NCBI GenBank assembly: GCA_963667725.2
Contig: CAXXHO010000005.1
Location: 192,001 to 256,000 of the forward strand
Direction: 5' to 3'
Origin: Treponemataceae bacterium
GTDB lineage: Bacteria; Spirochaetota; Spirochaetia; Treponematales; Rectinemataceae
DNA length: 64,000 bases
A model generated the notes under the pieces. The model saw only the letters and a list, made by a program, of their open reading frames with translations, searched no databases and was not told where the DNA came from. The stretch's first letter is position 1. Every line of letters begins with the position of its first letter. The translations under genes and the position numbers were made by a program. This document shows, in pieces, positions 43,828 to 61,749 of the stretch.

Positions 43828-44333
43828 AGGCAAAGGCGATACTGGAAAGGATCGACAGGATATTTCTCTTCATTTTTAAGTGGATTTCGGTGACGCTCTT
43901 CGTCGTCCTCACCCTCATCATTACGGCCAACGTCTTCGTCCGCTACGTACCCATCATCTCTTTGCACTGGCTGGACGAGATCGTGGAGCTGTCCTTCGCG
44001 TGGATGGTTTTCTTCGGATCGGCCGCGGTCTGGATACTGAAAGGACATTTCAGCGCGGGCGACTGGATCGGCAAGCTGATCAAGAACCCGAGGGCTCGCG
44101 CGGCCTACAGGCTTGTTGTCGACCTCATCGCCTTCGCCTTCATCGCCATATTTTTCTGGTATTCTCTGCAGTTGTTCAACCGCGCCATTGAAGTGACCGC
44201 CGTTTTCGAGTTCCCCAAGAAGATCATCTATGCCTGCATGCCCATCTCGTCGGCAGTCATGGGCTTGTACTCCCTCAGGTTCATCACCGAGGAGTTTGTG
44301 GAGATATTCGCGCCGAAAAAGGATAAGACCTGA
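43824..44333 (+). CDS. dctQ: TRAP transporter small permease
   Basis: Four TM segments, NVFVRY, WLDEI, HF. Confidence 0.9.
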   Translation: MKAKAILERIDRIFLFIFKWISVTLFVVLTLIITANVFVRYVPIISLHWLDEIVELSFAWMVFFGSAAVWILKGHFSAGDWIGKLIKNPRARAAYRLVVDLIAFAFIAIFFWYSLQLFNRAIEVTAVFEFPKKIIYACMPISSAVMGLYSLRFITEEFVEIFAPKKDKT

Positions 44334-44619
44334 GGTTGGAGAACATTGCCCCTGTCAACTTTTCTGCTGGAAGTGTAGCACATCTTTCATCAGGTTTTCA
44401 TCGAGATTGTTGGTATCCATAGCAGCTCTGTAAAATCCATACTACGCCCATTCGCAAAAACCGCCACAGTTACCTGCAGAAACAACCCCGGTTTCTGGAA
44501 CGAATGCCGAGGCCCTACGCATCCCAAAGTCGATACCGAGCGCCGATATGGACAGGATACTAGGAATTTAAGGATCTACGGGACTAAATTATAGTCGCGC
44601 ATCGCGAACTTCCCTGGAC

Positions 44620-46325
44620 CCTAATTTCCCGGAAAATTGTAGCTAGGGATTGAATAAATCTATTAGATATATGCGAATAAGCATTGACAGAATAAGCAAA
44701 CATAGCTACAATTACAGCTATGAATGCAGGATCAGCTTAATGCCCTATCGTATACATCATCTCAATAAGAAAACCGGCGTGACGTATGTCTATGAATCGG
44801 TATCTCGTTGGGACAAAGAAAAACAACAGGCACGCAGTACGCAAGTCTGTATTGGCAAAATTGATCCAACAACCGGAGCATTTATTCCATCAAAGCGCAT
44901 AACGCAGAGTGCTATACAAGATAACGAATCTATCGGTACGGCGACAGCAACTATCGTTGGACCTTCGTTAATTCTCGATGAAATATCCAAGCGGCTGGGA
45001 GTCGCGAGGCTTTTAAAAGCGGCATTCCCTGAATGCTCTGCACAAATTCTTACTATGGTTTATTACCTTGCCTGCCAGGGAGGGCCCTTAAGCCAATGCG
45101 AATCGTGGACCAAAACCCATGAACATCCAGCAACAAAGCCACTTACAAGCCAGAGGATAAGCGAGATTCTTGGATCCATATCGACAGGAGCAAAGCAATC
45201 GTTTTTGTCATCCTGGATGGATAAAATTCTTGAGGATGAATATCTCTGCTACGATATCACGAGCATTTCATCCTACAGTGCGTTCAATGACTACATCCGC
45301 TGGGGACACAACAGAGATAAGGAGAAGCTTCCCCAGCTTAATTTGGCCATGCTCTTCGGTCAGAAGAGCAAACTACCAGTATACTATCACAGGATTCCTG
45401 GCAATATCACTGATGTGCAAACGGTACACAATCTTCTAGCGACCTTTAAGAAACTAGCTATCAAGAATCTGCACTATGTGCTTGATAAAGGGTTCTACAG
45501 CAAGAAGAACGTTGATGAACTTTTAGAGCGAAAAGACCATTTCACTCTTTCGGTTCCTTTGAATAATCTATGGATTCAGAAAGCCATAGACGAGATCTAC
45601 GATACGATTCAGGGGCCTGAACACTACAGGATGATCGACGATGAGGTACTGTATGTTCACTCAATGCTCCATCCCTGGGGAGAAGATCGGCGACGTTGTT
45701 ATCTGCACCTTTACTACAACGCCCAGATGAGAGCTCATGCAATCGATCGGTTTAATAGAGAACTCATAACCTACAAGGAAGAGCTGGAGTCAGGAAAACC
45801 AAAGGCCGAGAACAAAGAACAGTACGAGACCTTTTTTATCATCACGACGACGCCGGTGCGGGGGATGAAGGTTTCGTACAACAACGACGCGGTAAGTCAG
45901 TATATCAAACGTTATGCGGGGTTTCAGGCGATTTTCACGACGCGCTTTAAAGATCCCGATGAGGCACTCCAAGTATATCGTGACAAAGATATCGTGGAGA
46001 AATGTTTCGACGATCTGAAGAATAGCCTGGACATGAAACGCCTTCGTATGCACACGATAGAAACTGTCGACGGCAGGCTCTTTATACAATTCATAGCGCT
46101 CATTTTTACAAGTGCTTTACGAAGAGAAATGCGACAGTCAAAACTCATTGAAAAATATACAGTTCAGGAATTGTTGCTTGAAATGGATCCGCTTACTAAG
46201 ATTCGTTATGCAGGAAAATATGGTCAGATACTTACCGAGATAACAAAGCCACAGCGAGAAATCTTGGAGCTCTTAAACATTGAATTGCCGGTCGTCGCCT
46301 AGCTACAATTTGACGGGAATTCAGG
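44620..46325 (+). mobile_element. IS1634-family insertion sequence, apparently intact
   Basis: 28-bp TIRs (44620-47 and 46298-325, 24/28 match); 6-bp target duplication CTGGAC at 44614-19 and 46326-31. Confidence 0.92.
44740..46302 (+). CDS. IS1634-family transposase
   Basis: YDITS, GHNRD, LDKGFYS, YRDKD.VEKCF..LK. Confidence 0.92.
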   Translation: MPYRIHHLNKKTGVTYVYESVSRWDKEKQQARSTQVCIGKIDPTTGAFIPSKRITQSAIQDNESIGTATATIVGPSLILDEISKRLGVARLLKAAFPECSAQILTMVYYLACQGGPLSQCESWTKTHEHPATKPLTSQRISEILGSISTGAKQSFLSSWMDKILEDEYLCYDITSISSYSAFNDYIRWGHNRDKEKLPQLNLAMLFGQKSKLPVYYHRIPGNITDVQTVHNLLATFKKLAIKNLHYVLDKGFYSKKNVDELLERKDHFTLSVPLNNLWIQKAIDEIYDTIQGPEHYRMIDDEVLYVHSMLHPWGEDRRRCYLHLYYNAQMRAHAIDRFNRELITYKEELESGKPKAENKEQYETFFIITTTPVRGMKVSYNNDAVSQYIKRYAGFQAIFTTRFKDPDEALQVYRDKDIVEKCFDDLKNSLDMKRLRMHTIETVDGRLFIQFIALIFTSALRREMRQSKLIEKYTVQELLLEMDPLTKIRYAGKYGQILTEITKPQREILELLNIELPVVA

Positions 46326-46372
46326 CTGGACACTATCAGATATTTTTCTTGAGTTTCTTAGAAGAAAAAAAC

Positions 46373-46436
46373 TTGACAATACTAAAATGTGGTGGATATA
46401 ATTCAAGTGAACATAAGTTCTGAACATTTGTTCACT
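46373..46436 (+). promoter_or_regulatory. Consensus sigma70 promoter with SorC/DeoR-type operator
   Basis: TTGACA (46373-78)-18 nt-TATAAT (46397-402), then tandem TGAACATAAGTTC/TGAACATTTGTTC inside AGTGAACA...TGTTCACT (46406-36). Confidence 0.8.
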
Positions 46437-46446
46437 AGGAAGTTAG

Positions 46447-47181
46447 ATGGACGGATTACAATTTCGAATTAACCGCCTTTTTAGAAATGGTTCATTATTG
46501 CTCCTCGCTTTCGATCATGGACAGTTTATTGGAGTGCCGGATGGATTAAGAACAATAGATCCAATTCTTGAAAAGCTTTTAAATAAAGCGTTCGACGGGT
46601 ATATCTTTAACCCTGGCGCTGTACGTAATTTAAAGAATATTGAATCTGATAAAAGCATAATTCTTAGAATAACGCATGCAGGCACTCATCTTTCCAATAC
46701 TCCGGTTATGAATAAGTATTTTCTTCAGCCTGAGGATGCGCTTCGGCTTGGTGCTGATGCGGTGATCTCCATGGTGCTATTGGGACATGATAAGGACATG
46801 GAATCGATCAATGAATTGGCGAAGGCTGTGAACGATTACCATCGGTTTGGAATTCCCCTTATAGCAGAAATATTACCGGCTGCGCCTAAGGATTTTTCAT
46901 CTTCAAAAGTCGTCGCTGACATCTGCCGGATAGGTGCTGAAATCGGAGCTGACGTAATAAAAACTGTGCTGACCGATGATTTCGAATCGGTTGTTTCCGG
47001 CTGCCCTGTACCCATCATTGTCGCAGGGGGGAAAAAAGAAAACGACTTTATTTCCAATGCAGCTAATGCAATGAGGAGCGGAGCGAAAGGTCTCGCTATC
47101 GGAAGGAATCTCTATCAGAGAGAAGACCCGGCTTCCTTTATATCTGACATCGCCAAAGCCATGGGAAGGTGCAAACGCTGA
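46447..47181 (+). CDS. DhnA/LsrF-family class I aldolase-like protein
   Basis: AFDHG, ALRLGADAV, GADVIKT, VAGG, GRN. Confidence 0.88.
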   Translation: MDGLQFRINRLFRNGSLLLLAFDHGQFIGVPDGLRTIDPILEKLLNKAFDGYIFNPGAVRNLKNIESDKSIILRITHAGTHLSNTPVMNKYFLQPEDALRLGADAVISMVLLGHDKDMESINELAKAVNDYHRFGIPLIAEILPAAPKDFSSSKVVADICRIGAEIGADVIKTVLTDDFESVVSGCPVPIIVAGGKKENDFISNAANAMRSGAKGLAIGRNLYQREDPASFISDIAKAMGRCKR

Positions 47182-48125
47182 TGAAAAAGGATGAAGTTGT
47201 TCTGTCGTATAGATGTGCCGATTTGTATTATCGGCAGGATATTTCACAATTGGAAATTGCGCATACTTTAGGCATTTCCCGGCCCAAAGTATCAAGGCTC
47301 CTAGCTTTGGCGCGTGAACTAGGCATAGTTACAATTTCATTAAAACCCCCGGAATTATTCAATCAAACAGATCTAGAAAAGCGTTTGGCGGAAAAGTATG
47401 GCTTAAACAATGTTTTGATCGGCATCTCGAAAGATACTAGTGATTCGAGCATACTAAAAGCGATTGGATCAAGACTGGTTGGAGAATTTCCAATTTTTTT
47501 GAAAAAAGATATAAAAATTGGAATTGGGCTAGGTTCCACAATATATGAAACAGCCAGGACGATTCATTCTGATGGGCATATACCTTCCGGGATATCCATC
47601 TACCCCCTCATGGGACTGGCTGGAAGAGCCGATCCGGCTTATCAGATAAACAATATAATAGATCTCTTTGCTGAATCTTTAAGCGCGCAGAGGAATTATT
47701 TTTTCGGGCCCGCAATTTTTGAGGACGCCGCACAAAAAGAAAACTTTTGCAAATCAAAGCAAGTAAAGGAAATCATAGATATATGGGAGGAGCTCGACCT
47801 CGCAGTTTTCGGTATTGGCGGACCAATTGAACGGTCTCCGCTCTTGTACTCCTCGTTTCCTGAAAAGATTCTCGTACAAATGGTTCAAAATCACGCAGTT
47901 GGCGACGTACTTGCACATTTTTTTAATATAGAAGGGAATTTAGCTTGTCCGGAAGCGGAAGCTACCCTTTTGAGCATTTCTTTTTCATCACTAAAAAAAA
48001 TCCCGGAACGCATCTGTCTTGCAGGTGGTCTGTGGAAATTGAACAGCATTAAGACTGCTCTGAAATCAAAACTAGCTACGATTTTAGTTACGGATCTCAT
48101 AACAGCTCAAAGTCTTATTGAGTAA
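47181..48125 (+). CDS. SorC/DeoR (LsrR-like) sugar-binding transcriptional regulator
   Basis: LYY...SQ.EIA..LGISRPKVSRLL, AVGD, LVTD..TA. Confidence 0.92.
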   Translation: MKKDEVVLSYRCADLYYRQDISQLEIAHTLGISRPKVSRLLALARELGIVTISLKPPELFNQTDLEKRLAEKYGLNNVLIGISKDTSDSSILKAIGSRLVGEFPIFLKKDIKIGIGLGSTIYETARTIHSDGHIPSGISIYPLMGLAGRADPAYQINNIIDLFAESLSAQRNYFFGPAIFEDAAQKENFCKSKQVKEIIDIWEELDLAVFGIGGPIERSPLLYSSFPEKILVQMVQNHAVGDVLAHFFNIEGNLACPEAEATLLSISFSSLKKIPERICLAGGLWKLNSIKTALKSKLATILVTDLITAQSLIE

Positions 48126-48145
48126 CAGAAAGTCAGGGAGGAACA

Positions 48146-49138
48146 ATGAAAGCGGTAGTATATGAGGCACCTAAGTCTATTTCGTTCCAGGATGTTCCGG
48201 ATCCAATTGTAAACGCAGACACGATTTTAATAAAAGTATCTTACTCCTTCATCTGTGCTACTGATATTAAAACGTATAAGCAGGGACACCCTCATATAGT
48301 CCCACCAACAATTCTTGGACATGAATTTTCCGGGATCGTTGAGAGTGTAGGAAAAAATGTCGATTCCTATTCGGTGGGCGATTGTGTAACAGGCAGCCCT
48401 TTCATCAATTGCGGTGTATGCGATTCATGCTTTCGAGGAAGGCCTGAAGTATGTTCTGCCAGAAAATTCCCGTCAAACGGCGCTTTTGCTGAAAGAATAG
48501 CCATGTCGAGTGAGTATGCAAAACTTGGACTAGTCAAAGTGCCACCTGCCTTGTTACAGCAATCTGCCTTATCGGAGCCTTTGGCCTGTGTACTGAACTC
48601 TGCGCGATCATTCAACCCTCAGCCTGGTGATTCCATTCTCGTGGTCGGCGCGGGATTTATGGGTGTGCTGAATGCTTTAGTATTAAAGACCATTTTCGGT
48701 GCTCACTCGTATATCACCGATACGAATGCAGAGAGACTGAAGCTTCCTTCAAAGCTTGGGATAGAAATCATTGAGGACATAGAAAAGAGGCCTGAAGCCT
48801 TTAATACTATTGTCCTTACTCCCCCCATACCTGAATTGATTGTTCAATATCAGAAATATGTAGTTCCGTTCGGCAATCTAGTTTTATTCGGAGGGTATGC
48901 TAAAGGAACAAAGGCACTTTTCGATCCGAATATTGTGCATTATACGGGATCAAAGATTGTCGGAACATCAGGGTTTTCCCCGTCAAATTTTAAAACAGCA
49001 GCAAAGCTGATTACGACTGGCGCGATCAATCTGGACGTGTTTATGGATAATATGTATGAGTTTTCCTCTTCGGAATTCCAAAAAGCTTTTGTAGACGCGA
49101 TGGACGGTCGCGCCCTTAAAGCAGGATTTATCCTATGA
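48146..49138 (+). CDS. Zinc-dependent (MDR) polyol/sugar dehydrogenase
   Basis: ICATD, GHE, CGVCDSC..G...VC, EPLAC, GAGFMG. Confidence 0.9.
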   Translation: MKAVVYEAPKSISFQDVPDPIVNADTILIKVSYSFICATDIKTYKQGHPHIVPPTILGHEFSGIVESVGKNVDSYSVGDCVTGSPFINCGVCDSCFRGRPEVCSARKFPSNGAFAERIAMSSEYAKLGLVKVPPALLQQSALSEPLACVLNSARSFNPQPGDSILVVGAGFMGVLNALVLKTIFGAHSYITDTNAERLKLPSKLGIEIIEDIEKRPEAFNTIVLTPPIPELIVQYQKYVVPFGNLVLFGGYAKGTKALFDPNIVHYTGSKIVGTSGFSPSNFKTAAKLITTGAINLDVFMDNMYEFSSSEFQKAFVDAMDGRALKAGFIL

Positions 49139-49228
49139 CAGCCGCTATGGCATCTATGAATTTAACGGCCGTTTGCTGTTGTCAATATCCGGGCAATTTG
49201 CAAACAGTAATAACAAGGAGGAAATGAG

Positions 49229-50017
49229 ATGTCGTATGGAAAAAAAATAAGAATGTCCAGAATCTTCAGAGGCGAAAAGGCTAGAACGGTGATGCTTGCT
49301 CTTGATCATGGAATGGCATTAGGACCTATGCGAGGCATTGAACGCCCACGGGAACTTCTTAATTCTGTTGGTGCTTACGTAGATTCCATAATGTTAAATA
49401 AGGGAATACTGACCAATTGTGGAGATCCCTCTCTTGGCGCAGGAGTAGTCTTGCGTATCAGCGGGGCCTCGACTATCGCAGGACCTGACCTTACAGCGGA
49501 ACGCATTACTACCACCTTGGAAGCGGCGATCCGGCTTGGCGCAGATGCTGTGGCTGCTTCGATATTTGTCGGAACCGCCAACGAGCATGCATCTATAGAA
49601 GCCCTTTCATTGCTGGCAGATGAGTGTGACCGATTCGGCATGCCTCTTCTTGCGGTCACTGCTTTGGGAAAAGACAGAGAAAAGGGATTTGATCCGCGCT
49701 ATTTAGCCTTGGCAGTGCGAGTTGCGGCTGAAATGGGCGCTGATATGATCAAGACATATTTCTGCGAGGATGGATTTGACAAGGTAATTGAAGCTGCGGC
49801 GGGAATACCGGTTGTGATAGCCGGCGGCCCGAAGATGGATAACAACATCAGTGTTCTTGAAACGGCAGAGAAGGCGGTGAAGGCCGGCTGCCGGGGTGTC
49901 GATATGGGGCGAAATGTTTGGCAAAACGAGGATCCCATCGCTATGCTTAAAGCGCTCCGGGCAATAATACATGAGAATTCCTCCGCGCAGGAAGCATTGC
50001 TGCAGTATTGGAATTGA
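49229..50017 (+). CDS. lsrF: LsrF-like thiolase/aldolase
   Basis: LAVTALGK, RY.ALA.RVAAEMGADMIKTYF, VIAGGPK, GVDMGRN closely parallel LsrF motifs. Confidence 0.75.
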   Translation: MSYGKKIRMSRIFRGEKARTVMLALDHGMALGPMRGIERPRELLNSVGAYVDSIMLNKGILTNCGDPSLGAGVVLRISGASTIAGPDLTAERITTTLEAAIRLGADAVAASIFVGTANEHASIEALSLLADECDRFGMPLLAVTALGKDREKGFDPRYLALAVRVAAEMGADMIKTYFCEDGFDKVIEAAAGIPVVIAGGPKMDNNISVLETAEKAVKAGCRGVDMGRNVWQNEDPIAMLKALRAIIHENSSAQEALLQYWN

Positions 50018-50022
50018 GCACG

Positions 50023-51540
50023 ATGACAGAAGAAATTGTCCGTATAGAGGCTTTGTCTAAAGAATTCCCGGGGGTGACTGCGCTTAGCAATGTAAATCTT
50101 CGGCTCAATAGAGGCGAGATACATGGCCTTGTTGGAGAAAACGGCGCGGGGAAGTCAACACTCATAAATATTTTAGCAGGAGCATTCCGGCCAAGCTCAG
50201 GGTCTCTTATTGTTGACGGAAAAGCAGTCAATGAGTTTCAGCCCTCTATCGCACAATCTCTAGGTATATCCGTGGTGTATCAGGAAACGGTACTAGTCCC
50301 GGATTTTACCGCTGAAGAGAATATCTGGCTGGGTAGAGAGGATACCAAGAATTTTGTCATCGATAAAGCGAAGCAAAAAAAGAAAACCATCGAATTATGC
50401 AAGGAATACGGCATTGAAATTCCCTTGTCTGTTCCAATGTCCTCGTGCCGTGTCGCCGAGAAGAAGCTAGTGGAAATTCTCCGTGCTTTGAGTATGAACG
50501 TAAAAGTATTTATTCTTGACGAACCTACAGAAGCATTGTCAAAACAGGATGTCGATAATTTGTTTAAAATTTTAACATCCCTGAAAGCTAAGGGGTTTTC
50601 AATACTTTTTGTATCACATCATCTGGAAGAAGTATTTCGTATTTGTGATAAGATTACTGTATTAAGGAATGGGGAGGAAGTCGGGAACTTTTCCCCAAAT
50701 GATTTATCCGTTCAGTCTCTCATTCATTTGATTACTAACCGCGATATAAGCGATCAATATCCAGTACCGCATAAAAGAAGTAGCACAGATCCGGTTCTTG
50801 AAACGAAAAATCTCTCTAACCCTAATCTAGGCCTCTCGAATATTTCTATCCATGTTAATAAAGGAGAGATTGTTGCCTTCTTCGGGATGGTCGGATCTCA
50901 CCGTACTGAACTCATGAAGTGTTTGTTTGGCGCCGAAAAGATTAAATCGGGAGATATTATTTTCAGGGGAGAAAAAATTGAATTAAAGCATCCTAGTGAT
51001 GCAATTAGAAAAGGAATATTCCTCTGTCCAGAGGATAGAAAACTGGAAGGCTTTATTCCTGATATGTCTGTGCTCGATAATTGTACATTGCCGTTTTTAA
51101 AGCGTTTTACCAGAATTGGCGTAATCAGCAAAGCCAGACAAAAAGAGGTTGTGAAAACAATCATTGCAGACCTCTCGATTAAAACGCCTTCAGCCGAGCA
51201 AAAAATAATTTTCTTGAGCGGTGGCAATCAGCAAAAAATCGTGATCGGCAAATGGCTTATCGGACAGCAGGGGGAGCTTTTTATTTTTGATGAGCCGACA
51301 AAGGGTGTCGACGTCGGAACAAAAATGGACATTTACAAAGCAATGCAAGAGCTGGCAGAAAACGGCGCTGGCGTAATATTTGTCTCCTCAGATCTTAGAG
51401 AATTGCTTGGCGTATCTGATCGTCTTTATGTGATGAGGAAAGGTGAAATTGTAAAAGAGTATATAAGGGAAGAATTTGACCAGCACACTATTCTTTTACA
51501 GGCTTTAACCGAAAAGAAAATTTTGGGAGCAGTATCGTGA
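50023..51540 (+). CDS. Sugar ABC transporter ATP-binding protein
   Basis: GENGAGKS, LDEPT, VSHH, LSGGNQQK. Confidence 0.95.
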   Translation: MTEEIVRIEALSKEFPGVTALSNVNLRLNRGEIHGLVGENGAGKSTLINILAGAFRPSSGSLIVDGKAVNEFQPSIAQSLGISVVYQETVLVPDFTAEENIWLGREDTKNFVIDKAKQKKKTIELCKEYGIEIPLSVPMSSCRVAEKKLVEILRALSMNVKVFILDEPTEALSKQDVDNLFKILTSLKAKGFSILFVSHHLEEVFRICDKITVLRNGEEVGNFSPNDLSVQSLIHLITNRDISDQYPVPHKRSSTDPVLETKNLSNPNLGLSNISIHVNKGEIVAFFGMVGSHRTELMKCLFGAEKIKSGDIIFRGEKIELKHPSDAIRKGIFLCPEDRKLEGFIPDMSVLDNCTLPFLKRFTRIGVISKARQKEVVKTIIADLSIKTPSAEQKIIFLSGGNQQKIVIGKWLIGQQGELFIFDEPTKGVDVGTKMDIYKAMQELAENGAGVIFVSSDLRELLGVSDRLYVMRKGEIVKEYIREEFDQHTILLQALTEKKILGAVS

Positions 51541-52487
51541 AAGAAAAAACAAAAACCTTTGTCCAAAAATATGGAACGATCGTGACGCTAATGCTGCTGA
51601 TTATTATTTTTTCATTAACGACAGAAACATTTCTTGAACCCAGAAACCTACTGAATATTATCGCGCATATATCAATGTTGATGATAATCGCTACAGGACT
51701 TACAGTATGTATGGTGCCGGGCGATTTTGATATGTCCATCGGTTCCGTGGCAAGCCTTTCCGGAATATTTTTTTCAAGCCTGGTTATAAAAAATATTCCG
51801 CTGGTTCCCTCGATACTCATTGTTTTGTTAATGGGAGCTATATTCGGCCTTACGGCAGGCCTTCTGGTAACAAAAGTCAGGATCTCTGCATTTATTGCGA
51901 CATTAGCTTTAGGCCAAGTAGCTACCGGAATAAATTTCATGTACACGAGAGGGCAGGAAGTATTCGGTGATTTCAGCAAAGGATTTTTATCTCTAGGGCA
52001 GGGGAAGACTTTTACTATTATTCCTAATCAGGTTTTAATAATGATTGGGATTGTACTAATTTTTGCTTTTACAATGGAAAAAACAAAAGTTGGCAGATAT
52101 ATGTATGCAATAGGCGGCAGTAGCCATGCGTCATATCTTTCGGGAATAAAAGTAAACCTGTATCGCATCTGCGGCCTGATGATATCCGGAGGATTGGCTG
52201 CCTTCACTGGTTGTATTTTAGCTTCACGGCTTGGATCGGGCCAGCCTACAGCAGGTGATTCGTATCTTATGGATGCAATTGCCGCTACTTATATCGGCAT
52301 GACTACAATTAAGGCTTCTCGTCCAAATATCATAGGAACACTCATTGGAGTTTTATTTATAGGCGTGATTGAGAATGGACTAGTACTCATCGGTGTCTCC
52401 TATTTCTTTCAATATATTGCCAAGGGAGTGATTATTATTCTCGCGGTTGCTTTGTCCTCGAGGGGGTCAATGGTTGTCGAAAAATGA
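51537..52487 (+). CDS. Sugar ABC transporter permease
   Basis: FDMSIGS, AIGG...A.YLSGI, DAIAA. Confidence 0.93.
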   Translation: MKEKTKTFVQKYGTIVTLMLLIIIFSLTTETFLEPRNLLNIIAHISMLMIIATGLTVCMVPGDFDMSIGSVASLSGIFFSSLVIKNIPLVPSILIVLLMGAIFGLTAGLLVTKVRISAFIATLALGQVATGINFMYTRGQEVFGDFSKGFLSLGQGKTFTIIPNQVLIMIGIVLIFAFTMEKTKVGRYMYAIGGSSHASYLSGIKVNLYRICGLMISGGLAAFTGCILASRLGSGQPTAGDSYLMDAIAATYIGMTTIKASRPNIIGTLIGVLFIGVIENGLVLIGVSYFFQYIAKGVIIILAVALSSRGSMVVEK

Positions 52488-52520
52488 CGACCTGGATTCA
52501 TATTTTTCAAGGAGGCTCTT

Positions 52521-53459
52521 ATGAAAAGGTTTTTCGGGTTACTTCTCGCTTTTGCCCTAGTAACACTGAGCATTGGAGCACAACCCGTGACTATCGGTTT
52601 TGTTTCACCGGATCAGGGTGCAAGTACGCAGGCGAGAATCGCCAACAAGCTTGAGCAGGTCGCAAAACAGGAAGGATGGAAGATATCCATCTCAAGCGCC
52701 GCCGGTTCGTGGGAGAAGATGGCAAACATTGTTGAGGACTACGTAAGTAAAAAAGTTAGTGCTATCGTAATAGCAATGGGACAAAGCACCTCTATCACCC
52801 CGGCACTTGAAGCGGCAAAGAAGGCAAAGATACCCGTTTTGGCTATCGACTCGGAATTTTCTGATCTATTGACAGCAGATATTCTTACCAACAACTGGGA
52901 AATGGGCGCAAAAATCTCTACATATCTAGTTGACAGGTTGAACCACAAGGGGAATATCGTCGCTTTCAAGTTCGATCAGTTTTATGGAACCAGGTACCGC
53001 GGGGAAATACTCGATACTGTTCTTTCCGAAGAGCCCAATATAAAGGTTTTGGATACTCATTATATTCCCCCTACAGGATATCTTGCTGATACGCAAGCTG
53101 CCATGCAGGCATATCTTGTTAAATACGGTTCAAAAATTGATGCCGTTTGGTGCGCATTTGATGATCTAGCCTACGGAGCTTCTCTGGCAATTAAAGAAAA
53201 AGGCTTCGGTCCTGATGACATGTTTGTTGTCGGTATAGACGGCACTGATCGCAATTTAAAACTCATCAAGAGTGGAACTTCCCCGGTGGTAGCTACGATT
53301 ATTCAGCCTTTTGATATTGCCGTAGATAAAGTAGCAGACTTGATCAAGAAGCTGGTAATTCAGAAGAAGACTGAAAAAGAAGCAATAGGAGCGGTTAAGG
53401 TCATTTATATGGATACGCCCCTCGTTACTTCCGCCAATGTTGATGAATATTTAAAGTAG
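52521..53459 (+). CDS. Sugar ABC transporter substrate-binding protein
   Basis: Signal peptide; periplasmic binding fold motifs (AFDD.A.GA, VVGIDG). Confidence 0.9.
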   Translation: MKRFFGLLLAFALVTLSIGAQPVTIGFVSPDQGASTQARIANKLEQVAKQEGWKISISSAAGSWEKMANIVEDYVSKKVSAIVIAMGQSTSITPALEAAKKAKIPVLAIDSEFSDLLTADILTNNWEMGAKISTYLVDRLNHKGNIVAFKFDQFYGTRYRGEILDTVLSEEPNIKVLDTHYIPPTGYLADTQAAMQAYLVKYGSKIDAVWCAFDDLAYGASLAIKEKGFGPDDMFVVGIDGTDRNLKLIKSGTSPVVATIIQPFDIAVDKVADLIKKLVIQKKTEKEAIGAVKVIYMDTPLVTSANVDEYLK

Positions 53460-53491
53460 CTCTATTTATTCAGGATTAGGAGTGCTGCTCT

Positions 53492-54979
53492 ATGATTCTG
53501 GGAATTGATATCGGAACGACTTCTTCTAAAGCGATTGTAGTAGATGAAAATTTGAAAGTTGCCGGAGAAGCTCGGATCAGTCACTCTGTCGACACTATAA
53601 AACCTGGTTTTATGGAGCAAAATCCTGAGATTTGGTGGGCCGATCTATGTCGGCTCACCAAATCTTTGTCTGAAAAAGTTGATTTGGCGAAAATAAACGC
53701 AGTGGGCTTAAGCTCGATGGGGCCAAATATCCTGCCGGTTTCATCATCAGGGCAAGCATTGAGATCTGCTATTCTATACGGAATAGATACAAGGGCATCT
53801 GCTGAAATTGAAGAATTGTCCAGTATTTTAAGATCAGATGAGGTTGCACATATTTTCGGTCGTTATTCTTCACAATCGATATTGCCTAAGATTTTATGGA
53901 TTAAGCATAATCAAAAAGAGATATTCGAATCAACAAACAAGGTTTTGACGACAAATGGCTATGTAGGGTATAGGCTCACGGGAAACTATTCTCTTGATTA
54001 TTTTACCGCCTCCGCTGGTGGTCTTATCGATTTTTCTGGAAATATTCTCTATGAAAGCAGTTTCCAGGCGGCAGATATCTCTTCTGCGATAATTCCGGAT
54101 TTATTATGGCCAGGAGACATCCTGGGGACAATTGATATAGAAGCTTCAAACGCTACAGGGCTTCCCAAAGGCACTATGGTGATTGCCGGTACAACGGATG
54201 CCGCAAACGAAGCGGTACTATGTGGATGCACAGAACCTGGCGATTCTGTTATATCGCTTGGCGGAACTTCGATATTTGTCACGTGCACTGATAAACCAGT
54301 AATGATGGAAAATGCTCTTGTCTGCAATTATCTGGACAGGAATTCTTTTATAGTCGGCGGTGCTACTGGTTCGGGTGGACTTTTAATGGATTGGTTTTCC
54401 GAGAAAATTTGCGGCTCTTCGCCGGAAAAGATACAATCGTTGATTCCGGAAAAAGAGCTTTATGAGACAGAACTTGTTGCCCTGCCGTATTTAAACGGAG
54501 CGAGAAATCCTTTAAACGACAAATCAGCAAAGGGGCTAATTCTAGGGCTAACATCGAATTCACAGTTAAAAGATATTTATATGGCATTTATTGAATCTTT
54601 GGCGCTGGAAATAGAAATGATGGTAGAAGATATATCAAAAATACTGAAGATCAATACTAATCTCAGGGTGACGGGAGGGGGATCGAATAACGAAATTCTG
54701 GTACAGGCAATTTGTGAAATACTACGCATGGGTATTGAAGTTCTTCCAAAGGAAATGGGCTCTGCCGCAGGAGCGGCGGTATTGGCAGGAGCCGCACACG
54801 GAAATTGGACAATAGATCAAGCAGCTAAAATGGTTCCAATAAAAAAACAGTATGAGAACTCAGGAAAGCATGACGCATATTTTTCTTTAAAGAAGGAAAT
54901 CTTCAGAAAAGCCTATAAGGTAAATCAGAGCATATTTACAGATCTGAATAATCTGGCAGGAATGGCGCACAATAACTAA
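53492..54979 (+). CDS. FGGY-family carbohydrate kinase
   Basis: LGIDIGTT, D.RA, GTTD, LPYLNGAR.P, TGGGS. Confidence 0.92.
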   Translation: MILGIDIGTTSSKAIVVDENLKVAGEARISHSVDTIKPGFMEQNPEIWWADLCRLTKSLSEKVDLAKINAVGLSSMGPNILPVSSSGQALRSAILYGIDTRASAEIEELSSILRSDEVAHIFGRYSSQSILPKILWIKHNQKEIFESTNKVLTTNGYVGYRLTGNYSLDYFTASAGGLIDFSGNILYESSFQAADISSAIIPDLLWPGDILGTIDIEASNATGLPKGTMVIAGTTDAANEAVLCGCTEPGDSVISLGGTSIFVTCTDKPVMMENALVCNYLDRNSFIVGGATGSGGLLMDWFSEKICGSSPEKIQSLIPEKELYETELVALPYLNGARNPLNDKSAKGLILGLTSNSQLKDIYMAFIESLALEIEMMVEDISKILKINTNLRVTGGGSNNEILVQAICEILRMGIEVLPKEMGSAAGAAVLAGAAHGNWTIDQAAKMVPIKKQYENSGKHDAYFSLKKEIFRKAYKVNQSIFTDLNNLAGMAHNN

Positions 54980-54994
54980 GTGAGAATAGAACTT

Positions 54995-56086
54995 ATGGAA
55001 AGAGTATTAGCAATTAATCCTGGGGCTACCTCAACAAAAATTGCGGTTTTTACCGGAACACAGAATACCTTTCAAAAGCTAATTGAACATAAATTAGAGG
55101 ATCTAGCGCACTATGAACATATCATTGACCAGTTCGGTTATCGATATAGCGTAATACTATCCTCTCTTAATGAAAATAATTTCCCTTTATCGGACCTGGA
55201 CGCTGTTGTGGGACGAGGCGGCATGCTCCAACCGGTTGAAAGTGGTACCTACAAAGTCAATGATTGTATGATTGAGGATCTGAATGCCGCATCCAGAGGA
55301 GAACATGCCTCCAACCTCGGTGCGTTATTGGCTAAAAAGATTGCCAGCGACAACGGAATCCCGGCGTTTATCGTTGATCCAGTATCAGTTGATGAAATGG
55401 ATGATGTAGCACGCATTTCAGGGCTGACCGAGTTGCCCAGGGTCAGCCTTTCTCACGCGCTCAACAGCAAAGCTATTGCAAGGAAAGCGGCTGACCAGAT
55501 CGGCAAAAAGTATGAGGCCCTTACTATTATTGTAGCTCATCTGGGAACCGGGATTTCTGTTTCCGCACATAAGAATGGCAGGATGATCGATGTAAACAAT
55601 GCCCAGGAAGAAGGACCATTTTCTTCTGACAGATGTGGTACAGTTCCTTCTTATCGACTTGTTAAAATGTGCTTTTCGGGAAAGTATTCAGAAAAGGAAA
55701 TACTAAAAAAGCTAATGGGGTCCGGTGGATTACATTCTCTAGTTGGCATGAAGGATATCAGGAAGATTGAAGAACTGGCTACTACCGGTAATAAAAATGC
55801 GGATATCGCTCTCAGGGCGCTTACCTATCAGATAGCTAAAGAAATCGGGGCTATGGCAACTGTATTCTTTGGAAATCTTGATTGTATCGCCATCACCGGA
55901 GGAATGGCTTATTCAGAAAGAATAGTGAAAGATATTACATCCCGTATAGAATTTTTATCTCCAGTACTGATTTTCCCCGGTGAAGATGAAATGGCATCTC
56001 TGGTTCTTGGTGTTCTTCGTGTTTTGAGGGGTGAGGAAAAAGCGAAAGTATACGAAGGAGCTCGATATAGTGGAAAGGCTGAATGA
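54995..56086 (+). CDS. buk: Butyrate kinase
   Basis: INPGATSTK, GRGG, EHASNLG, VDPVSVDE, HALN.KA, PGEDE. Alternative GTG start at 54980. Confidence 0.94.
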   Translation: MERVLAINPGATSTKIAVFTGTQNTFQKLIEHKLEDLAHYEHIIDQFGYRYSVILSSLNENNFPLSDLDAVVGRGGMLQPVESGTYKVNDCMIEDLNAASRGEHASNLGALLAKKIASDNGIPAFIVDPVSVDEMDDVARISGLTELPRVSLSHALNSKAIARKAADQIGKKYEALTIIVAHLGTGISVSAHKNGRMIDVNNAQEEGPFSSDRCGTVPSYRLVKMCFSGKYSEKEILKKLMGSGGLHSLVGMKDIRKIEELATTGNKNADIALRALTYQIAKEIGAMATVFFGNLDCIAITGGMAYSERIVKDITSRIEFLSPVLIFPGEDEMASLVLGVLRVLRGEEKAKVYEGARYSGKAE

Positions 56087-56969
56087 TTTTGTCGATGCTG
56101 CCCGTTGTCTTGGTTCGACTACTGTTGCTGTAGCGGCCGCGGAAGATATTGAGACGATTGAAGCGGTGCGCAATGCGATTTCCCAAGGATTCATAAAAGC
56201 TATACTTGTAGGCGATCAGCCCAAGATCCTGGCTCTCTGCGGAACCAAGGGATTGCCTGATGGGGCCAGGATTGTACATGCAGCGTCATTGCCTGACGCT
56301 GCGTGGAAAGCAACAGCCATTGTAAAGTCCGGCGAGGCAAACGTGCTTATGAAAGGGTTGATCAATACAAGCGATTTTCTTAAAGCTGTCTTAAATCCTG
56401 AAAATGGACTTAGGACAGATCGTTTGCTCAGTCATTTGGCTGTATTTGAAATTCCCGGTGAATCAAAACTGGTATTTCATAGCGACGGGGGTATGGTTGT
56501 TCTTCCAAAACTTGAGGAAAAAAAAGCAATACTTCAAAATGCGCTGGACGCATTACACCGGCTAGGAATTAAAAATCCTAATGTAGCGATATTGGCCGCA
56601 AACGAAAAAGTGAATCCAAAAATCCCGGCAACTACCGATGCAAGGGCAATAGTTGATGCATGGGAAAGGGGCGAGTTTCCACGGTGCATTATAGAAGGCC
56701 CTATAGCGATAGATGTTGCGACGAGTGAAGCAGCCGCTGAACATAAAGGAATAAATAGTGCAATCGCGGGGAAAGTGGACCTTTTTATATTTCCATCCAT
56801 CGAAGCCGGCAATATTGCGGGAAAAATTCTTGTTCGCTATGGAAAAGCAAAAATGGCCGGTATAATATTAGGTGCGGCAAAACCGATAGTTCTGGTTTCC
56901 AGGTCTGATAACGCTTCCGCTAAAGTGTTTTCGATAGCCTTGGCCTGCCTTGCTTCCCGAAAGATATGA
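56070..56969 (+). CDS. ptb: Phosphate butyryltransferase
   Basis: LMKG, LSH, EKVNPK, GP.A.D.A, IEAGN, SRSD; AAGGAG before the GTG start. Confidence 0.9.
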   Translation: MERLNDFVDAARCLGSTTVAVAAAEDIETIEAVRNAISQGFIKAILVGDQPKILALCGTKGLPDGARIVHAASLPDAAWKATAIVKSGEANVLMKGLINTSDFLKAVLNPENGLRTDRLLSHLAVFEIPGESKLVFHSDGGMVVLPKLEEKKAILQNALDALHRLGIKNPNVAILAANEKVNPKIPATTDARAIVDAWERGEFPRCIIEGPIAIDVATSEAAAEHKGINSAIAGKVDLFIFPSIEAGNIAGKILVRYGKAKMAGIILGAAKPIVLVSRSDNASAKVFSIALACLASRKI

Positions 56970-57855
56970 AAAAGGTGATTCTGCCTGGAAGGGGCTAAAA
57001 AGAAAATCCAGGTTTGAATTACAAATATTACGTGAGCACCTAATTCTTCAATTTGCTTTTCGCTCAATTGTCACCGTACGGAATGAGGGGCAAGCCCAGC
57101 TCCTTTAAAAATTCATTATGCTTTTTCGTCGCTTCGGAAATACTTTTCTCAATATTTAACAAATCGTTGTTGACCGCTTGAAGGTCTATTTCCTCTTCTT
57201 GGACCGCGGTGCTGATATAACGGGTAATGTTGAGATTGAAGCCGTTGGTGGTAATCTCCTCCATGGACACCCTACGCGAATAACGCTCTTCTTCTTTCCG
57301 GAATTGATAGGTGGAAACGATTTTTTCAATGTGGTCGGGGGATAATTGATTCTGCCTTTTGCCCTTTTCGAAATGCTCGCTGGCGTTGATGAAAAGCACA
57401 TCGTCGGGCTTCTTGCATTTCTTGAGTACAAGGATGCAAACGGGGATGCCTGTCAAGAAAAAGAGGTTGGCCGGCAGACCTATGACAGTATCGATATTGC
57501 CGTCTTCCAGAAGTTTCCGGCGAATGCGCTCCTCGGCCCCGCCGCGGAAGAGTACTCCTTGCGGAAGAATGATCGCCATGGTGCCTTCGTCGGAGAGGAA
57601 ATGAAAGCCATGCAGGAGGAAAGCAAAGTCAGCGGCGGATTTTGACGCCAATCCATAATTCTTGAAGCGGAAGTCCTCAGCCAGGGCGTCGTTTGGCTCC
57701 CAGCGATAGCTGAATGGCGGATTGGCTACTACCGCGTCGAATTTCTGTTTCTTCGCGGGATTCTGTTCCCTGAGGATGTCCCAATCATTGAGCAGCGAGT
57801 CGCCATGATGAATTTCAAATTCAGAGTCCTTGACACCGTGAAGGAGCATATTCAT

Positions 57856-59585
57856 CCTGGATTCCCGGAAAATTATACCAAGGGAAAAATAATAGCACAT
57901 AATATATAGAAATAGCAGTGAACAGGTTCTATGCATTGGTATATACTATAACAATGTAGGAGAATCCCATGCCACAGCGAATCCAGAACATTAATGGCGT
58001 TCTATACGTTTATGAAGATCGTGCATCATGGGATAAAGCTACAAAGAATGCAAAACACACCAGGCACTACATTGGGAAAATGGTAAACAATGTCTTTGTT
58101 CCCAACCCAAAGTATCTTCTCGAGCGTGAGCTCGAAGCTGTAAAAAAAAAAGAAGCGAGGCCCGGCTCAGATTACCTTGAGCACTCGCGAATTTTATGGA
58201 GCAACCTATCTCTTTGATCAGATAGGGGAAAAGCTTGGTATTACCGCTGACATAAAAACCTGCTTTCCTGATTTCTGGAAGCAGCTGCTCTCCATTGCCT
58301 ATTATCTTATTCTGGAGGATAAGAATCCCTTAAGCCGCTTCCCTCGATGGGCTCAAAATCATCGCCATCCCTATGGAGAATCAATTCCTTCCCAAAGGTC
58401 GAGCGATCTCTTTGGAGCCATTACGGAAGATGCTAAACAGAAATTCTTTCTCTTGCAGGCAAGAAGAAGGCTCGAGGAAGAATATCTTGCCTATGATACA
58501 ACCTCCGTGTCGTCTTATTCAGAGCTTATTAAGCAGGTGCACTATGGGAGGAACAAAGATCACGAACCACTCGCCCAGATCAACCTCGCCTTACTATTTG
58601 GGCAATCGTCACGACTTCCCGTCTACTATAGAAAGCTTGTCGGCAACATCAATGATGTCTCGACCATAAAGCGTCTTATTAGCGATCTTTCGTTTCTGGA
58701 AATCGACAAAGTAAAACTTGTCATGGATCGGGGATTCTATAGCGAAGACAATATGAATGCTTTATTTGAAAAGCATTATAAGTTTCTTATTGGTGTTAAG
58801 AAGTCCCTTCGCTTTGTTCGAGATATCCTCGATGACGTGCGGGATTCGATGAAAACCAGGGCCTGCTATAGCTCTGATTACGGAATCAACTACTATAGTA
58901 AAACCATCGAATGGTCGTATACAGCAAAGAAACCTCGATCGAACGTGACGGAAACGGGAACGCGAAGGGTGTATCTGCATCTGTACTTTGATGATCAAAA
59001 GGCCGTCGATGACAAGACGGTATTTAACTCGCTCCTTGATACGCTTGAAGAAGAGATTATGACAAACCGGCGGACACAGGAGCACGAAACCTTATATCAG
59101 AAGTATTACGATATCAGTACAACGCCGATACGCGGAACGTCCCTTGTCCCCAAACAGGACGCAATAAGCGCGGTAGAAAAAAACTATGGGTACTTTGCCC
59201 TTATGTCAAATGATATCAAGGATCCTCTCGAAGCCCTTGTAATCTATCGACTAAAAGATCTTGCAGAGAAAGCGTTTCATAATCTGAAAGAGCGGCTTTC
59301 CATGCGACGGACTTCAGTATCTTCGGAGGAGCATCTTGAAGGCAAGCTGTTCATTCAGTTCTTGGCACTGATATATCTTTCATATATTGATAAAGCAATG
59401 AGCGACTAAAAGCTCTATAAAACAATGACAATGCACGATCTTCTTGATGAACTGGATATTATTGAATGCTTTGGACATCCTTGCCATCGATTGCATTTTG
59501 GTGAGATTACTAAAAAGCAAAAATCTCTTTATGCCGCGTTAGGCGTCGAAGATCCCTCATTGGTATAAATGTTTGGGAATTCAGG
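57856..59585 (+). mobile_element. Second IS1634-family element, inserted in hsdM
   Basis: 26-bp TIRs (21/26 match); 6-bp target duplication ATTCAT at 57850-55 and 59586-91. Confidence 0.92.
57969..59568 (+). pseudogene. IS1634 transposase with frameshift and premature stop
   Basis: Frame change at the A10 tract 58142-51; in-frame TAA at 59407-09 with homologous sequence continuing to 59568; YDTTS, MDRGFYS. Confidence 0.85.
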
Positions 59586-59675
59586 ATTCATCCGCGCCAG
59601 GTTATAGGTGGTGATGTTCTTTCCCTGGCCAAAAAATTTTCCGATACCATACGTTCCTATTTGCTTTCGGACATT

Positions 59676-61747: not shown

Positions 61748-61749
61748 TA

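Follow-up and report, generated by a model that had tools for sequence, protein, structure and literature searches.

Ten tightly packed forward-strand genes (46447–56969; gaps of –13 to +90 nt in the ORF list of the window, the whole stretch of 64,000 nucleotides analysed) are predicted to be transcribed together from a low-GC island acquired by horizontal transfer, serving the catabolism of an imported sugar, deoxy-sugar or polyol. Gene content and neighbourhood point to a route, to which we give about an even chance, in which the compound would be imported, phosphorylated and oxidised to a 1,3-diketone phosphate, which CoA cleavage would split into DHAP and an acyl-CoA, from which Ptb and Buk would gain ATP. 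Gene families were assigned by Pfam and NCBIfam profile searches. The co-oriented run claimed in the preliminary description was recovered, with all ten genes on the + strand. One unit is predicted from this co-orientation, the short gaps, the abutment of the kinase and buk genes, the overlap of buk with ptb, and a sigma-70 promoter-like site (TTGACA-18-TATAAT, 46373–46402, + strand, consensus match only) 45 nt 5' of the first gene, ald1. Among 23 promoter-like sites in 44000–60000 this is the only one matching at 12/12 positions; since the scan gave fewer sites overall than shuffled sequence, that match alone is notable. Judged by the identical gene order in unrelated contigs, the arrangement is not due to chance.

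The left edge of the island is formed by a complete IS1634-family element (44620–46325, + strand; NF033559, 281.6 bits; transposase ORF 44650–46302) with 28-nt terminal inverted repeats (44620–44647 and 46298–46325, 86% complementary) and a GC content of 0.44, compared with 0.57 upstream. GC content in the window is 0.57 in 1–44400, 0.42 in 56970–62600 and about 0.6 after 62750. Profile searches of the island remainder (56970–62600) found C-terminal fragments of hsdM (57064–57936, – strand) and hsdR (61882–62532, – strand), a second IS1634-type transposase (58177–59409, + strand), an IS630-like pair (60512–61716, – strand) and, within the same interval, an AAA_13 fragment. By composition and boundaries, the operon, buk-ptb included, is on an IS-bounded, horizontally acquired island of foreign, low-GC composition.

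The proposed CoA-dependent thiolase is the LsrF-type enzyme LsrF2 (49229–50017, + strand), which scored 292.3 bits on NF006081, just below the cut-off of 297, shares 41.5% identity with E. coli LsrF and matched PDB 3gkf/4p2v with 205 bits. According to an excerpt of Diaz et al., 2009 (PMC2728841), K203 is the Schiff-base lysine of E. coli LsrF, D57 its acid/base, and H58, R254 and G226/227/253 its phosphate site; D251 is LsrF-specific, other aldolases having Tyr or Glu at this position and close aldolase homologues Ala. LsrF2 is the same as E. coli LsrF at 10/10 active-site positions compared, including K203, Y205, D251 and M252. Its translation contains both motifs named in the preliminary description, KTY (as MIKTYF, K175-T176-Y177) and GVDMGRN (residues 223–229), and D225-M226-G227-R228-N229 is invariant in 30 relatives; the LsrF-like identity proposed there thus stands, the LsrF-specific active site being present, Asp251 included. 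In a quick tree, on which E. coli LsrF has a long branch, LsrF2 and E. coli LsrF shared a clade of 96 rows (support 100), from which ald1-type proteins and others of aldolase type were separate. The lsrF product is named '3-hydroxy-2,4-pentadione 5-phosphate thiolase' in the E. coli K-12 record. To our knowledge, CoA dependence is established for E. coli LsrF only, and no sequence feature diagnostic of CoA binding is known to us.

Directly upstream of the LsrF2 gene lies that of a Zn-dependent MDR dehydrogenase (48146–49138, + strand; ADH_N, 83.5 bits), the proposed 1,3-diketone maker, which is Tdh/IolM-like: Tdh and IolM were its top NCBIfam matches, all under cut-off (Tdh, 124.6 vs 458), and its translation carries GHE, CxxCxxCx7C and GAGFMG motifs. 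In 67 of 78 other loci, an LsrF-type gene has a homologue of this dehydrogenase on its own strand no more than 2.4 kb away, and in 53 of them the distance is 300 bp or less; the pairing spans phyla. This near-constant association fits the earlier suggestion that the dehydrogenase makes the diketone, as a plain aldolase would not need such a partner. The same genes can be read differently. LsrF2 and ald1 might be CoA-independent class I aldolases in a polyol/ketose route (polyol to ketose by the dehydrogenase, ketose to phosphate by the kinase, phosphate to DHAP plus aldehyde by the aldolase), with buk-ptb as a general fermentation module downstream by chance. We regard this as unlikely. In its favour, both proteins belong to PF01791 with the Schiff-base Lys and Asp kept, and Zn MDR proteins include many polyol dehydrogenases, with sorbitol, xylitol and arabinitol dehydrogenases among the PDB matches here. 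Against it, LsrF2, like the thiolase LsrF, has Asp251 in place of the Tyr/Glu proton donor found in true aldolases; the LsrF products were not detectable in vitro in the work of Diaz et al. as excerpted (PMC2728841); and the near-universal dehydrogenase partner is present also where neither importer nor kinase accompanies it, a misfit with polyol uptake.

The second aldolase-type gene, ald1 (46447–47181, + strand), encodes a 244-aa DhnA/ADH-synthase-like class I (Schiff-base) protein of the DeoC/LacD family (PF01791, 97.7 bits), 33% identical to E. coli LsrF, which retains D57, K203, G226/227/253 and R254 (E. coli numbering). It forms a clade apart from the LsrF-type proteins in the quick tree, with Ala at 251 in 15/15 members and an invariant Glu141. 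Although ald1 is conserved in all three cassette groups described below, neither the scheme of the preliminary description nor our five-step model assigns it a step, which counts against the model. Its best PDB match is the ADH synthase MJ0400, and LsrF2 scores 241.9 on NF005556, an ADH-synthase subfamily model with a cut-off of 241, so that the two DhnA-type enzymes might be synthetic, making a deoxy-keto sugar derivative by ADH-synthase-like transaldol chemistry. We consider this extremely unlikely: the importer, kinase and repressor are typical of catabolism, dehydroquinate synthase II and other aro genes are absent from the operon, and LsrF2 has the LsrF-type Asp rather than the Ala of ADH synthase.

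Uptake would be by a CUT2 ABC importer made up of an ATPase with two nucleotide-binding domains (50008–51540, + strand; ABC_tran twice; AraG, XylG and RbsA models at 435–508 bits, under cut-offs), a single RbsC-like permease (51537–52487, + strand; PF02653, 112.5 bits; RbsC model 220 bits, under cut-off) and a periplasmic/lipoprotein-type sugar-binding protein (52521–53459, + strand; Peripla_BP_4, 127.8 bits). The top PDB matches of the last are ribose/polyol-type binding proteins at only 68–72 bits, weak matches that lean towards the polyol/ketose aldolase route. The FGGY carbohydrate kinase (53492–54979, + strand; FGGY_N and FGGY_C) is xylulokinase-like (XylB-like), scoring 255.7 on TIGR01312 against a cut-off of 380 and below every NCBIfam cut-off. 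As the operon has no isomerase, common aldoses are unlikely substrates. The SorC/DeoR(Bacillus)-type regulator, of a sugar-phosphate-responsive kind and with a Sugar-bind domain (47169–48125, + strand; PF04198, 168.4 bits) scored 197 bits on NF053881 and 88 on the LsrR model, both far under cut-offs; the signal that it senses would probably be a phosphorylated intermediate.

These parts, a SorC-family regulator, CUT2 importer, FGGY kinase and LsrF-type enzyme, whose relatives carry the database name 'AI-2 aldolase', recall the Lsr system of E. coli and Salmonella (LsrK, the isomerase LsrG, the thiolase LsrF, LsrACDB and LsrR), and the operon might take up and destroy AI-2 (DPD), a quorum signal, or one of its close analogues. 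Both systems have CUT2 ABC import and FGGY phosphorylation; in both, a SorC-family repressor would govern an LsrF-type Schiff-base enzyme that splits a phosphorylated 2,4-diketone. An AI-2 role is nevertheless very unlikely. In place of LsrG, the operon has the Zn dehydrogenase and, as a further aldolase-type enzyme, ald1; it has one permease, not two, and buk-ptb is appended. With E. coli LsrG as the single query, no match was found by tblastn (E ≤ 0.01) in the window, in agreement with the preliminary description, nor in the 97%-complete genome. Identity is only 21% between the binding protein and LsrB, 22% between the kinase and LsrK and 26% between the regulator and LsrR, and the AI-2 analogue named earlier as a possible substrate is accordingly improbable. 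Phospho-DPD needs isomerisation only, so that a dehydrogenase would be superfluous for it; the diketone of the operon would come from oxidation.

The last two genes encode a butyrate kinase (Buk, 54980–56086, + strand; TIGR02707, 484.9 with a cut-off of 289.1; NF002834, 497.2 with a cut-off of 222) and a Ptb-like PTA_PTB protein (56031–56969, + strand; PF01515, 164 bits; Ptb models 301–305 bits vs cut-offs of 399–410). The buk ORF opens with a GTG at 54980, abutting the kinase stop, and the probable start is ATG 54995, giving a gap of 0–15 nt; the probable ptb start, GTG 56070, lies 9 nt past AAGGAG and leaves a 17-nt overlap with the end of buk. Both genes have the composition of the island (GC 0.43 and 0.46, GC3 0.37–0.38), and base composition is uniform over all ten genes. 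The other two buk-ptb pairs of the host have GC contents of 0.60–0.61, and the operon genes are 46/41% and 38/35% identical to them; one pair neighbours a 2-oxoacid:ferredoxin oxidoreductase, an enzyme that forms acyl-CoA, and the other an HMGL-like lyase. For acetyl-CoA, the host also encodes a PduL-type phosphotransacetylase and two acetate kinases (AckA). No acylating aldehyde dehydrogenase or other acyl-CoA-forming family was found by Pfam and NCBIfam among the ten operon products.

The eight-gene cassette (ald1, SorC, Zn dehydrogenase, LsrF, ABC importer, FGGY) recurs in other lineages: Marinimicrobia-type and Kosmotogaceae-type contigs keep the gene order, and a third group has it slightly rearranged. 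The kinase is followed by buk in all six close-relative loci that extend past it; these six, the window among them, fall into four separate lineages (the window; L082/83/85; L084; G060:C247). L082 has the identical 17-nt overlap and the same junctions, a Buk 78% identical to that of the window, and a different neighbourhood without IS. In contrast, among 11 more distantly related cassettes whose sequence continues for 2.8 kb or more past the kinase, none has buk or ptb there (0/7 in the 62–67% identity group, 0/4 in the 56% group), and no other acyl-CoA gene was found in their flanks. The linkage that the preliminary description expected to be conserved was therefore borne out among the closest relatives and partly refuted by the distant cassettes. 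Binding proteins of the distant cassettes are still about 61% identical to that of the window (third group, 45%), so the same substrate is probably handled there without Ptb/Buk; the core pathway would then work without the pair, which may be dispensable or unrelated.

These absences suit the aldolase reading, whereas the tight kinase-buk-ptb junction repeated in four lineages does not. They also raise the possibility, which we hold to be rather improbable, that the cassette is thiolytic and buk-ptb functionally unlinked to it, as donor neighbours carried along or serving any short acyl-CoA. The restriction of the linkage to close relatives, an ordinary butyrate kinase (56–60% identity to named Clostridia and Holophaga enzymes) and the host's buk-ptb pairs in other contexts would agree with this; the narrow junctions, identical in L082, the fggy-buk-ptb order kept in G060 and L084, and the uniform composition of the ten genes speak against it. 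The proximity to the kinase, the overlap and the shared travel in four close lineages, in a host already equipped with PduL and AckA, favour the view that buk-ptb is tied to the cassette.

In the preferred, thiolytic model, the compound would be taken up by the CUT2 importer, a terminal hydroxyl would be phosphorylated by the FGGY kinase, and the Zn dehydrogenase would oxidise the hydroxyl two carbons from the keto group to give R-CO-CHOH-CO-CH2-O-P. Lys175 of LsrF2 would then form a Schiff base and the acyl group would pass to CoA as in E. coli LsrF, yielding DHAP and R-CO-CoA; in this lineage only, translationally coupled Ptb and Buk would make the acid and ATP from R-CO-CoA, with the acyl phosphate as intermediate. 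By chemistry, a 1- or 5-deoxypentulose phosphate would supply an acetyl group, a pentulose phosphate a glycolyl group, and (6-deoxy)hexulose phosphates a lactyl or glyceroyl group; the preliminary description had put forward a non-acetyl acyl-CoA as the putative product.

Oxidation followed by CoA cleavage has a parallel in threonine dehydrogenase and 2-amino-3-ketobutyrate CoA ligase (Tdh/Kbl), where a Tdh-type Zn MDR dehydrogenase makes a beta-dicarbonyl and a second enzyme cleaves it with CoA to acetyl-CoA. Tdh models are top matches of the operon dehydrogenase, although far under their cut-offs; Kbl, however, is a PLP enzyme unrelated to LsrF, and it acts on an amino acid rather than a sugar phosphate. 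In the DHAP shunt for 5-deoxyribose salvage, as outlined in an excerpt of PMC6079011, a kinase, an isomerase and a class II aldolase convert a phosphorylated deoxy-ketopentose to DHAP. The operon would likewise draw DHAP from such a compound, and 5-deoxyribulose 1-phosphate oxidised at C4 would, by chemical reasoning, be the exact LsrF substrate; the aldolase of the shunt instead releases acetaldehyde without oxidation or CoA, and its kinase and isomerase families are missing from the operon. As in the clostridial branch of butyrate and branched-chain acid fermentation, a Buk that passes the butyrate kinase equivalog model and a PTA_PTB protein would take acyl-CoA through acyl phosphate to acid and ATP. 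The operon differs in its buk-ptb order, its setting among sugar genes, a Ptb under the equivalog cut-offs, and the absence nearby of crotonase, Bcd and thiolase genes or a 2-oxoacid oxidoreductase.

The pair of Zn-dehydrogenase and LsrF-type genes is widespread in uncultured archaea and bacteria, adjacent and on the same strand as in the operon, and its LsrF-type proteins fall in the same D-M-G-R-N clade as LsrF2 in the quick tree. Unlike in the operon, the pair is not accompanied by an importer, FGGY kinase, ald1, buk or ptb within 10 kb, and its LsrF-type proteins score 372–390 bits on the LsrF model, compared with 292 for LsrF2. The widespread pair probably acts on an internally made sugar phosphate. 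The thiolytic, ATP-yielding route proposed for the operon would be one so far undescribed.

The preliminary description had reported a single co-oriented gene run, and this was confirmed by gene coordinates, strand and the families assigned in Pfam and NCBIfam profile searches. All ten genes lie on the + strand between window positions 46447 and 56969, with intergenic gaps of -13 to +90 nt. They encode ald1, a DhnA-type protein of the DeoC/LacD family (46447-47181), a SorC/DeoR-type regulator (47169-48125), a Zn MDR dehydrogenase (48146-49138), the LsrF-type protein LsrF2 (49229-50017), a CUT2 ABC importer made up of an ATPase, one permease and a Peripla_BP_4 binding protein (50008-53459; binding protein at 52521-53459), a xylulokinase-like FGGY kinase (53492-54979), a butyrate kinase scoring over both curated cut-offs (Buk, 54980-56086) and a Ptb-like PTA_PTB protein under the Ptb cut-offs (56031-56969). 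Only one promoter-like site in the region matches at 12/12 positions, TTGACA-18-TATAAT at 46373-46402. The kinase stop codon (54977-54979) is followed immediately by the GTG of the buk open reading frame, although an ATG 15 nt further on is the likelier start. An in-frame GTG at 56070, 9 nt past an AAGGAG, would as ptb start lie 17 nt ahead of the buk stop. In L082, a related locus, the reading frames of kinase and buk overlap by 1 nt and those of buk and ptb by 17 nt. A terminator scan returned no more sites than shuffled sequence, none of them between genes. Because of these junctions and the lack of a terminator site between genes, the ten genes are predicted, and are likely, to be co-transcribed.

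LsrF2 belongs to the DhnA-type class I aldolase fold (PF01791, 100.7 bits), aligns end to end with the E. coli LsrF structures 3gkf, 3glc and 4p2v (205 bits) and shares 41.5% identity with K-12 LsrF. A report on the E. coli enzyme assigns the Schiff base to Lys203, the acid/base role to Asp57 and the phosphate site to His58, Arg254 and Gly226/227/253; it also describes Asp251 as standing in for the Tyr/Glu proton donor of real aldolases, the closest aldolase homologues having Ala at that position (PMC2728841). When aligned with K-12 LsrF, LsrF2 has identical residues for the catalytic pair (K175 and D26) and throughout the phosphate site (H27, G199, G200, G227 and R228), and the equivalent of Asp251 is D225, within GVDMGRN. 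The two proteins agree at 10/10 positions checked, Tyr205 and Met252 among them, and the KTY and GVDMGRN motifs quoted in the preliminary description are indeed present. The D-M-G-R-N stretch showed no variation in 30 relatives. Against the NCBIfam LsrF model NF006081 (cut-off 297), LsrF2 fell 1-5 bits short (292.3 as protein, 296.2 in six-frame search). In the six-frame control search E. coli gave a signal, yet none of the controls, E. coli included, exceeded the cut-off, and for this reason we give the near miss little weight. The K-12 record names lsrF a thiolase (3-hydroxy-2,4-pentanedione 5-phosphate thiolase), and CoA-dependent acyl transfer with release of DHAP has reportedly been demonstrated for the E. 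coli enzyme in a PNAS paper. By analogy with the K-12 name and this reported work, LsrF2 would be CoA-dependent as well.

In a quick maximum-likelihood tree, all D-M-G-R-N proteins fell into one clade of 96 rows (support 100), which also takes in a Bathyarchaeia/Chloroflexota subgroup with Asn at that position. The clade splits into three branches: one of group C, one of groups A and B (cassette groups defined below), and one of 77 rows comprising the dehydrogenase-paired type and E. coli LsrF. LsrF2, in the A and B branch, neighbours the 77-row branch; the exact place of E. coli LsrF, which is long-branched in this quick tree, is unsure. Outside the clade lie the ald1-type and other aldolase-type proteins. 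The first gene product, ald1, shares 33% identity with LsrF; among solved structures its best match is the ADH synthase MJ0400. Across the 15 distinct sequences of the ald1 clade the lysine, Asp57 and the phosphate site are all kept, position 251 is Ala in 15/15 and Glu141 is invariant. A Leu aligns with the Tyr of MJ0400 in this clade, two residues after Glu141, which to judge from the alignment may be an alternative proton donor. By its residues ald1 appears to be a functional class I aldolase or transaldolase rather than a thiolase.

The operon would work in a manner like the processing branch of the E. coli AI-2 uptake and processing system, Lsr. Its components differ. Identity to the Lsr counterparts is no more than 21-26% for receptor, kinase and regulator (binding protein to LsrB, 21%; kinase to LsrK, 22%), one permease is present instead of the two of Lsr (LsrC and LsrD), and a dehydrogenase stands in the stead of the LsrG isomerase. 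The absence of lsrG claimed beforehand was borne out: a single E. coli LsrG query found no match in the window, nor in the 97%-complete host genome. With no match to the one LsrG query, distant receptor, kinase and regulator, and a single permease, an Lsr identity of the operon was rejected. To our knowledge, LsrF has been known only as the final enzyme of AI-2 signal destruction in enterobacteria. A literature search, with most subscription journals outside its scope, found no description of the cassette (the first eight genes, up to the kinase), of a link between LsrF and Ptb-Buk or of a dehydrogenase-fed LsrF route.

To define how far the arrangement recurs, a collection of species genomes was scanned with an alignment of LsrF2 relatives, of which we considered 80 loci (the best 80 of at least 581), and metagenome contigs were scanned with LsrF2 alone, giving 48 loci. 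Sorting by tblastn with the ten window proteins yielded three cassette groups. In group A (L081-L085; LsrF2 identity 80-94%) the whole gene order is kept, with buk 70-78% and ptb 76% identical on every contig long enough to cover their position. Group B (L087-L098, L108, L001 and L002; 62-67%) has ald1-SorC-dehydrogenase-LsrF-ABC-FGGY in the order of the window and neither buk nor ptb; L001 and L002 are named Marinimicrobia and Kosmotogaceae contigs. Group C (L099-L102; 56%) has the same genes with ald1 relocated behind the kinase, again with no buk or ptb. L086 (70%) is too short for class assignment. Among the best 80 species-genome loci the cassette was found in 2 only, both on contigs that stop at the kinase.

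A kinase search of 100 relatives' genomes added one group-A case, contig G060:C247 from another genus of the same family, with fggy (77%), buk (82%) and ptb (73%) in that order; in the same search the FGGY kinase was absent from both same-genus genomes. The preliminary description had named co-occurrence of LsrF-type genes with buk-ptb across genomes as a check. Such co-occurrence was seen within group A, where buk directly follows the kinase in all six loci that reach past it (four distinct lineages, L082, L083 and L085 being near-identical), whereas neither buk nor ptb was found in any of seven group-B and four group-C loci with at least 2.8 kb of sequence downstream of the kinase. Nothing can be drawn on this point from L001, L002 and six other contigs, which stop at or before the kinase. 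The flanks of the group B and C cassettes hold 5'-nucleotidase, PfkB kinase, HAD hydrolase and unrelated genes, and no acyl-CoA enzyme was found in them. An UshA-like 5'-nucleotidase gene lies on the opposite strand upstream of group-B cassettes (L087:5004-6923, L095:4659-6461), and a ribokinase-like PfkB gene lies downstream on Marinimicrobia-type contigs (L087:16728-17621, L088:16747-17640, L091:17947-18840); together these neighbours are a weak hint of a nucleoside-derived sugar. On a 9.4-kb metagenome contig (L090:582-9435) the cassette seems circularly permuted, LsrF-ABC-FGGY preceding ald1-SorC-dehydrogenase, which could reflect a tandem copy or an assembly artefact. Two further proteins, a 94% LsrF2 relative (P0001) and an 82% Buk relative (P0123), are both listed with a longest contig of 128,565 bases from a Spirochaetales/Spirochaetia MAG and probably represent one further linked cassette.

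The remaining 78 of the 80 best species-genome loci (L003-L080; at least 581 loci in all) belong to Nitrososphaerota, Bathyarchaeia, Omnitrophota, Thermoplasmatota, Gemmatimonadota and other groups, and within 10 kb of them neither an importer or kinase nor buk or ptb was found. In 67/78, however distant the host, a Tdh-like Zn dehydrogenase is encoded on the strand of the LsrF-type gene and no more than 2.4 kb from it, and in 53 no more than 300 bp from it (for example L029:8926-10837 and L010:7188-10795); the hosts include ammonia-oxidising archaea. On the NCBIfam LsrF model these dehydrogenase-paired proteins reach 372-390 bits, over its cut-off, in organisms that have no lsr system, and the name "LsrF" probably masks some housekeeping function. 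Because a 1,3-diketone must first be made, a steady dehydrogenase partner is a requirement of thiolytic (retro-Claisen) cleavage and none for an aldolase.

The operon lies within a region whose composition differs from its surroundings: GC content is 0.57 over the first 44.4 kb of the window versus about 0.43 between 44.4 and 62.6 kb. The low-GC stretch opens with a complete IS1634 element with 28-nt inverted ends, and its far end is a jumble of a second IS1634-type transposase, an IS630-like element and fragments of type I restriction genes (hsdM C-terminal fragment, 57064-57936; hsdR C-terminal fragment, 61882-62532). Host genes flank it on either side (TRAP transporter, 41555-44333; ABC permease from 63317). 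We conclude that window positions 44400-62600 are a low-GC genomic island. A composite transposon was considered, as both flanking transposases are of the IS1634 type, but was rejected: no direct repeat of at least 25 nt was found between them, and no terminal repeats were detected for the second. The cassettes of L081 and L082 are likewise lower in GC than their flanks.

The host has two more buk-ptb pairs (L129, G000:C3:568000-587000; L130, G000:C3:694000-713000), with GC of 0.60-0.61 and with Buk/Ptb identities to the operon proteins of 46/41% and 38/35%. Since all ten operon genes share the island composition and the host pairs differ in GC and sequence, buk-ptb came with the cassette and was not recruited locally. 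The operon Buk scored 484.9 on TIGR02707 (cut-off 289.1) and 497.2 on NF002834 (cut-off 222). The adjoining protein, with 164 bits on PF01515 and 301-305 bits on the Ptb equivalog models (cut-offs 399-410), is by these profile scores assigned as a Ptb-like member of the PTA_PTB family. One of the extra host pairs has a KDPG-type aldolase gene on one side and a 2-oxoacid:ferredoxin oxidoreductase, an enzyme that makes acyl-CoA, on the other. The second is preceded by a Liv-type ABC importer and an HMGL-like lyase; at 479 aa, its Buk is unusually long. The oxidoreductase, at least, fits the view that buk-ptb pairs mark operons ending in acyl-CoA.

The following pathway is proposed. The substrate would be imported, phosphorylated and oxidised to R-CO-CHOH-CO-CH2-O-P, from which the LsrF-type enzyme would pass R-CO- to CoA with release of DHAP; in group A only, Ptb and Buk would then convert the acyl-CoA with a gain of ATP. 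Pfam and NCBIfam searches matched none of the ten gene products to an acyl-CoA-supplying family. This thiolytic, Ptb/Buk-coupled reading of the operon stands, in our judgement, at an even balance. By simple chemistry, 1-deoxyxylulose 5-phosphate and 5-deoxyribulose 1-phosphate would each place a methyl group at R and lead to the true LsrF substrate and acetyl-CoA; with pentulose phosphates R would be hydroxymethyl and the product glycolyl-CoA, and with 6-deoxyhexulose 1-phosphates R would be 1-hydroxyethyl and the product lactyl-CoA. A product other than acetyl-CoA is favoured because Ptb/Buk prefer C3-C5 acyl groups and are poor on C2 units, and because the host already has two acetate kinases and a PduL-type phosphotransacetylase (a canonical full-length Pta had no match in its genome). 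It is disfavoured because groups B and C manage without Ptb/Buk despite binding proteins 61% and 45% identical to that of the window. A hydroxyacyl-CoA product appears unlikely to us. In PDB sequence searches the substrate-facing proteins had distant matches only (binding protein at most 72, dehydrogenase at most 98, kinase at most 136 bits), and in NCBIfam they had no match above cut-off in any of the three cassette groups.

The operon is real and recurrent and has a mechanistic reading, whose biochemistry is predicted from sequence. Natural thiolytic sugar fermentation, in which a (deoxy)ketose phosphate would be turned into a 1,3-diketone and cut to DHAP and lactyl-, glycolyl- or glyceroyl-CoA, not an aldehyde, with a dedicated Ptb-Buk pair gaining one extra ATP per sugar, is a tentative and rather doubtful extension of it. 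The cassette would be an example of a complete pathway moving between anaerobes as a low-GC island. If the reading is true, LsrF chemistry would be a general way of cutting sugars, in which a phosphorylated 1,3-diketone is made and then cleaved with CoA, fed by a dehydrogenase and not an isomerase, tied to an importer and, in one lineage, coupled to substrate-level phosphorylation. It would be a new mode of C-C cleavage in carbohydrate catabolism that keeps the energy of aldehyde oxidation as a thioester, would account for the "AI-2 aldolase / LsrF" annotations, hundreds in number, of organisms lacking quorum-sensing genes, and would offer enzymes for making hydroxyacyl-CoAs out of sugars. Should the product prove to be a hydroxyacyl-CoA, an energy-conserving cleavage would take the place of the aldol cleavage of classical fucose-, rhamnose- and pentulose-type pathways.
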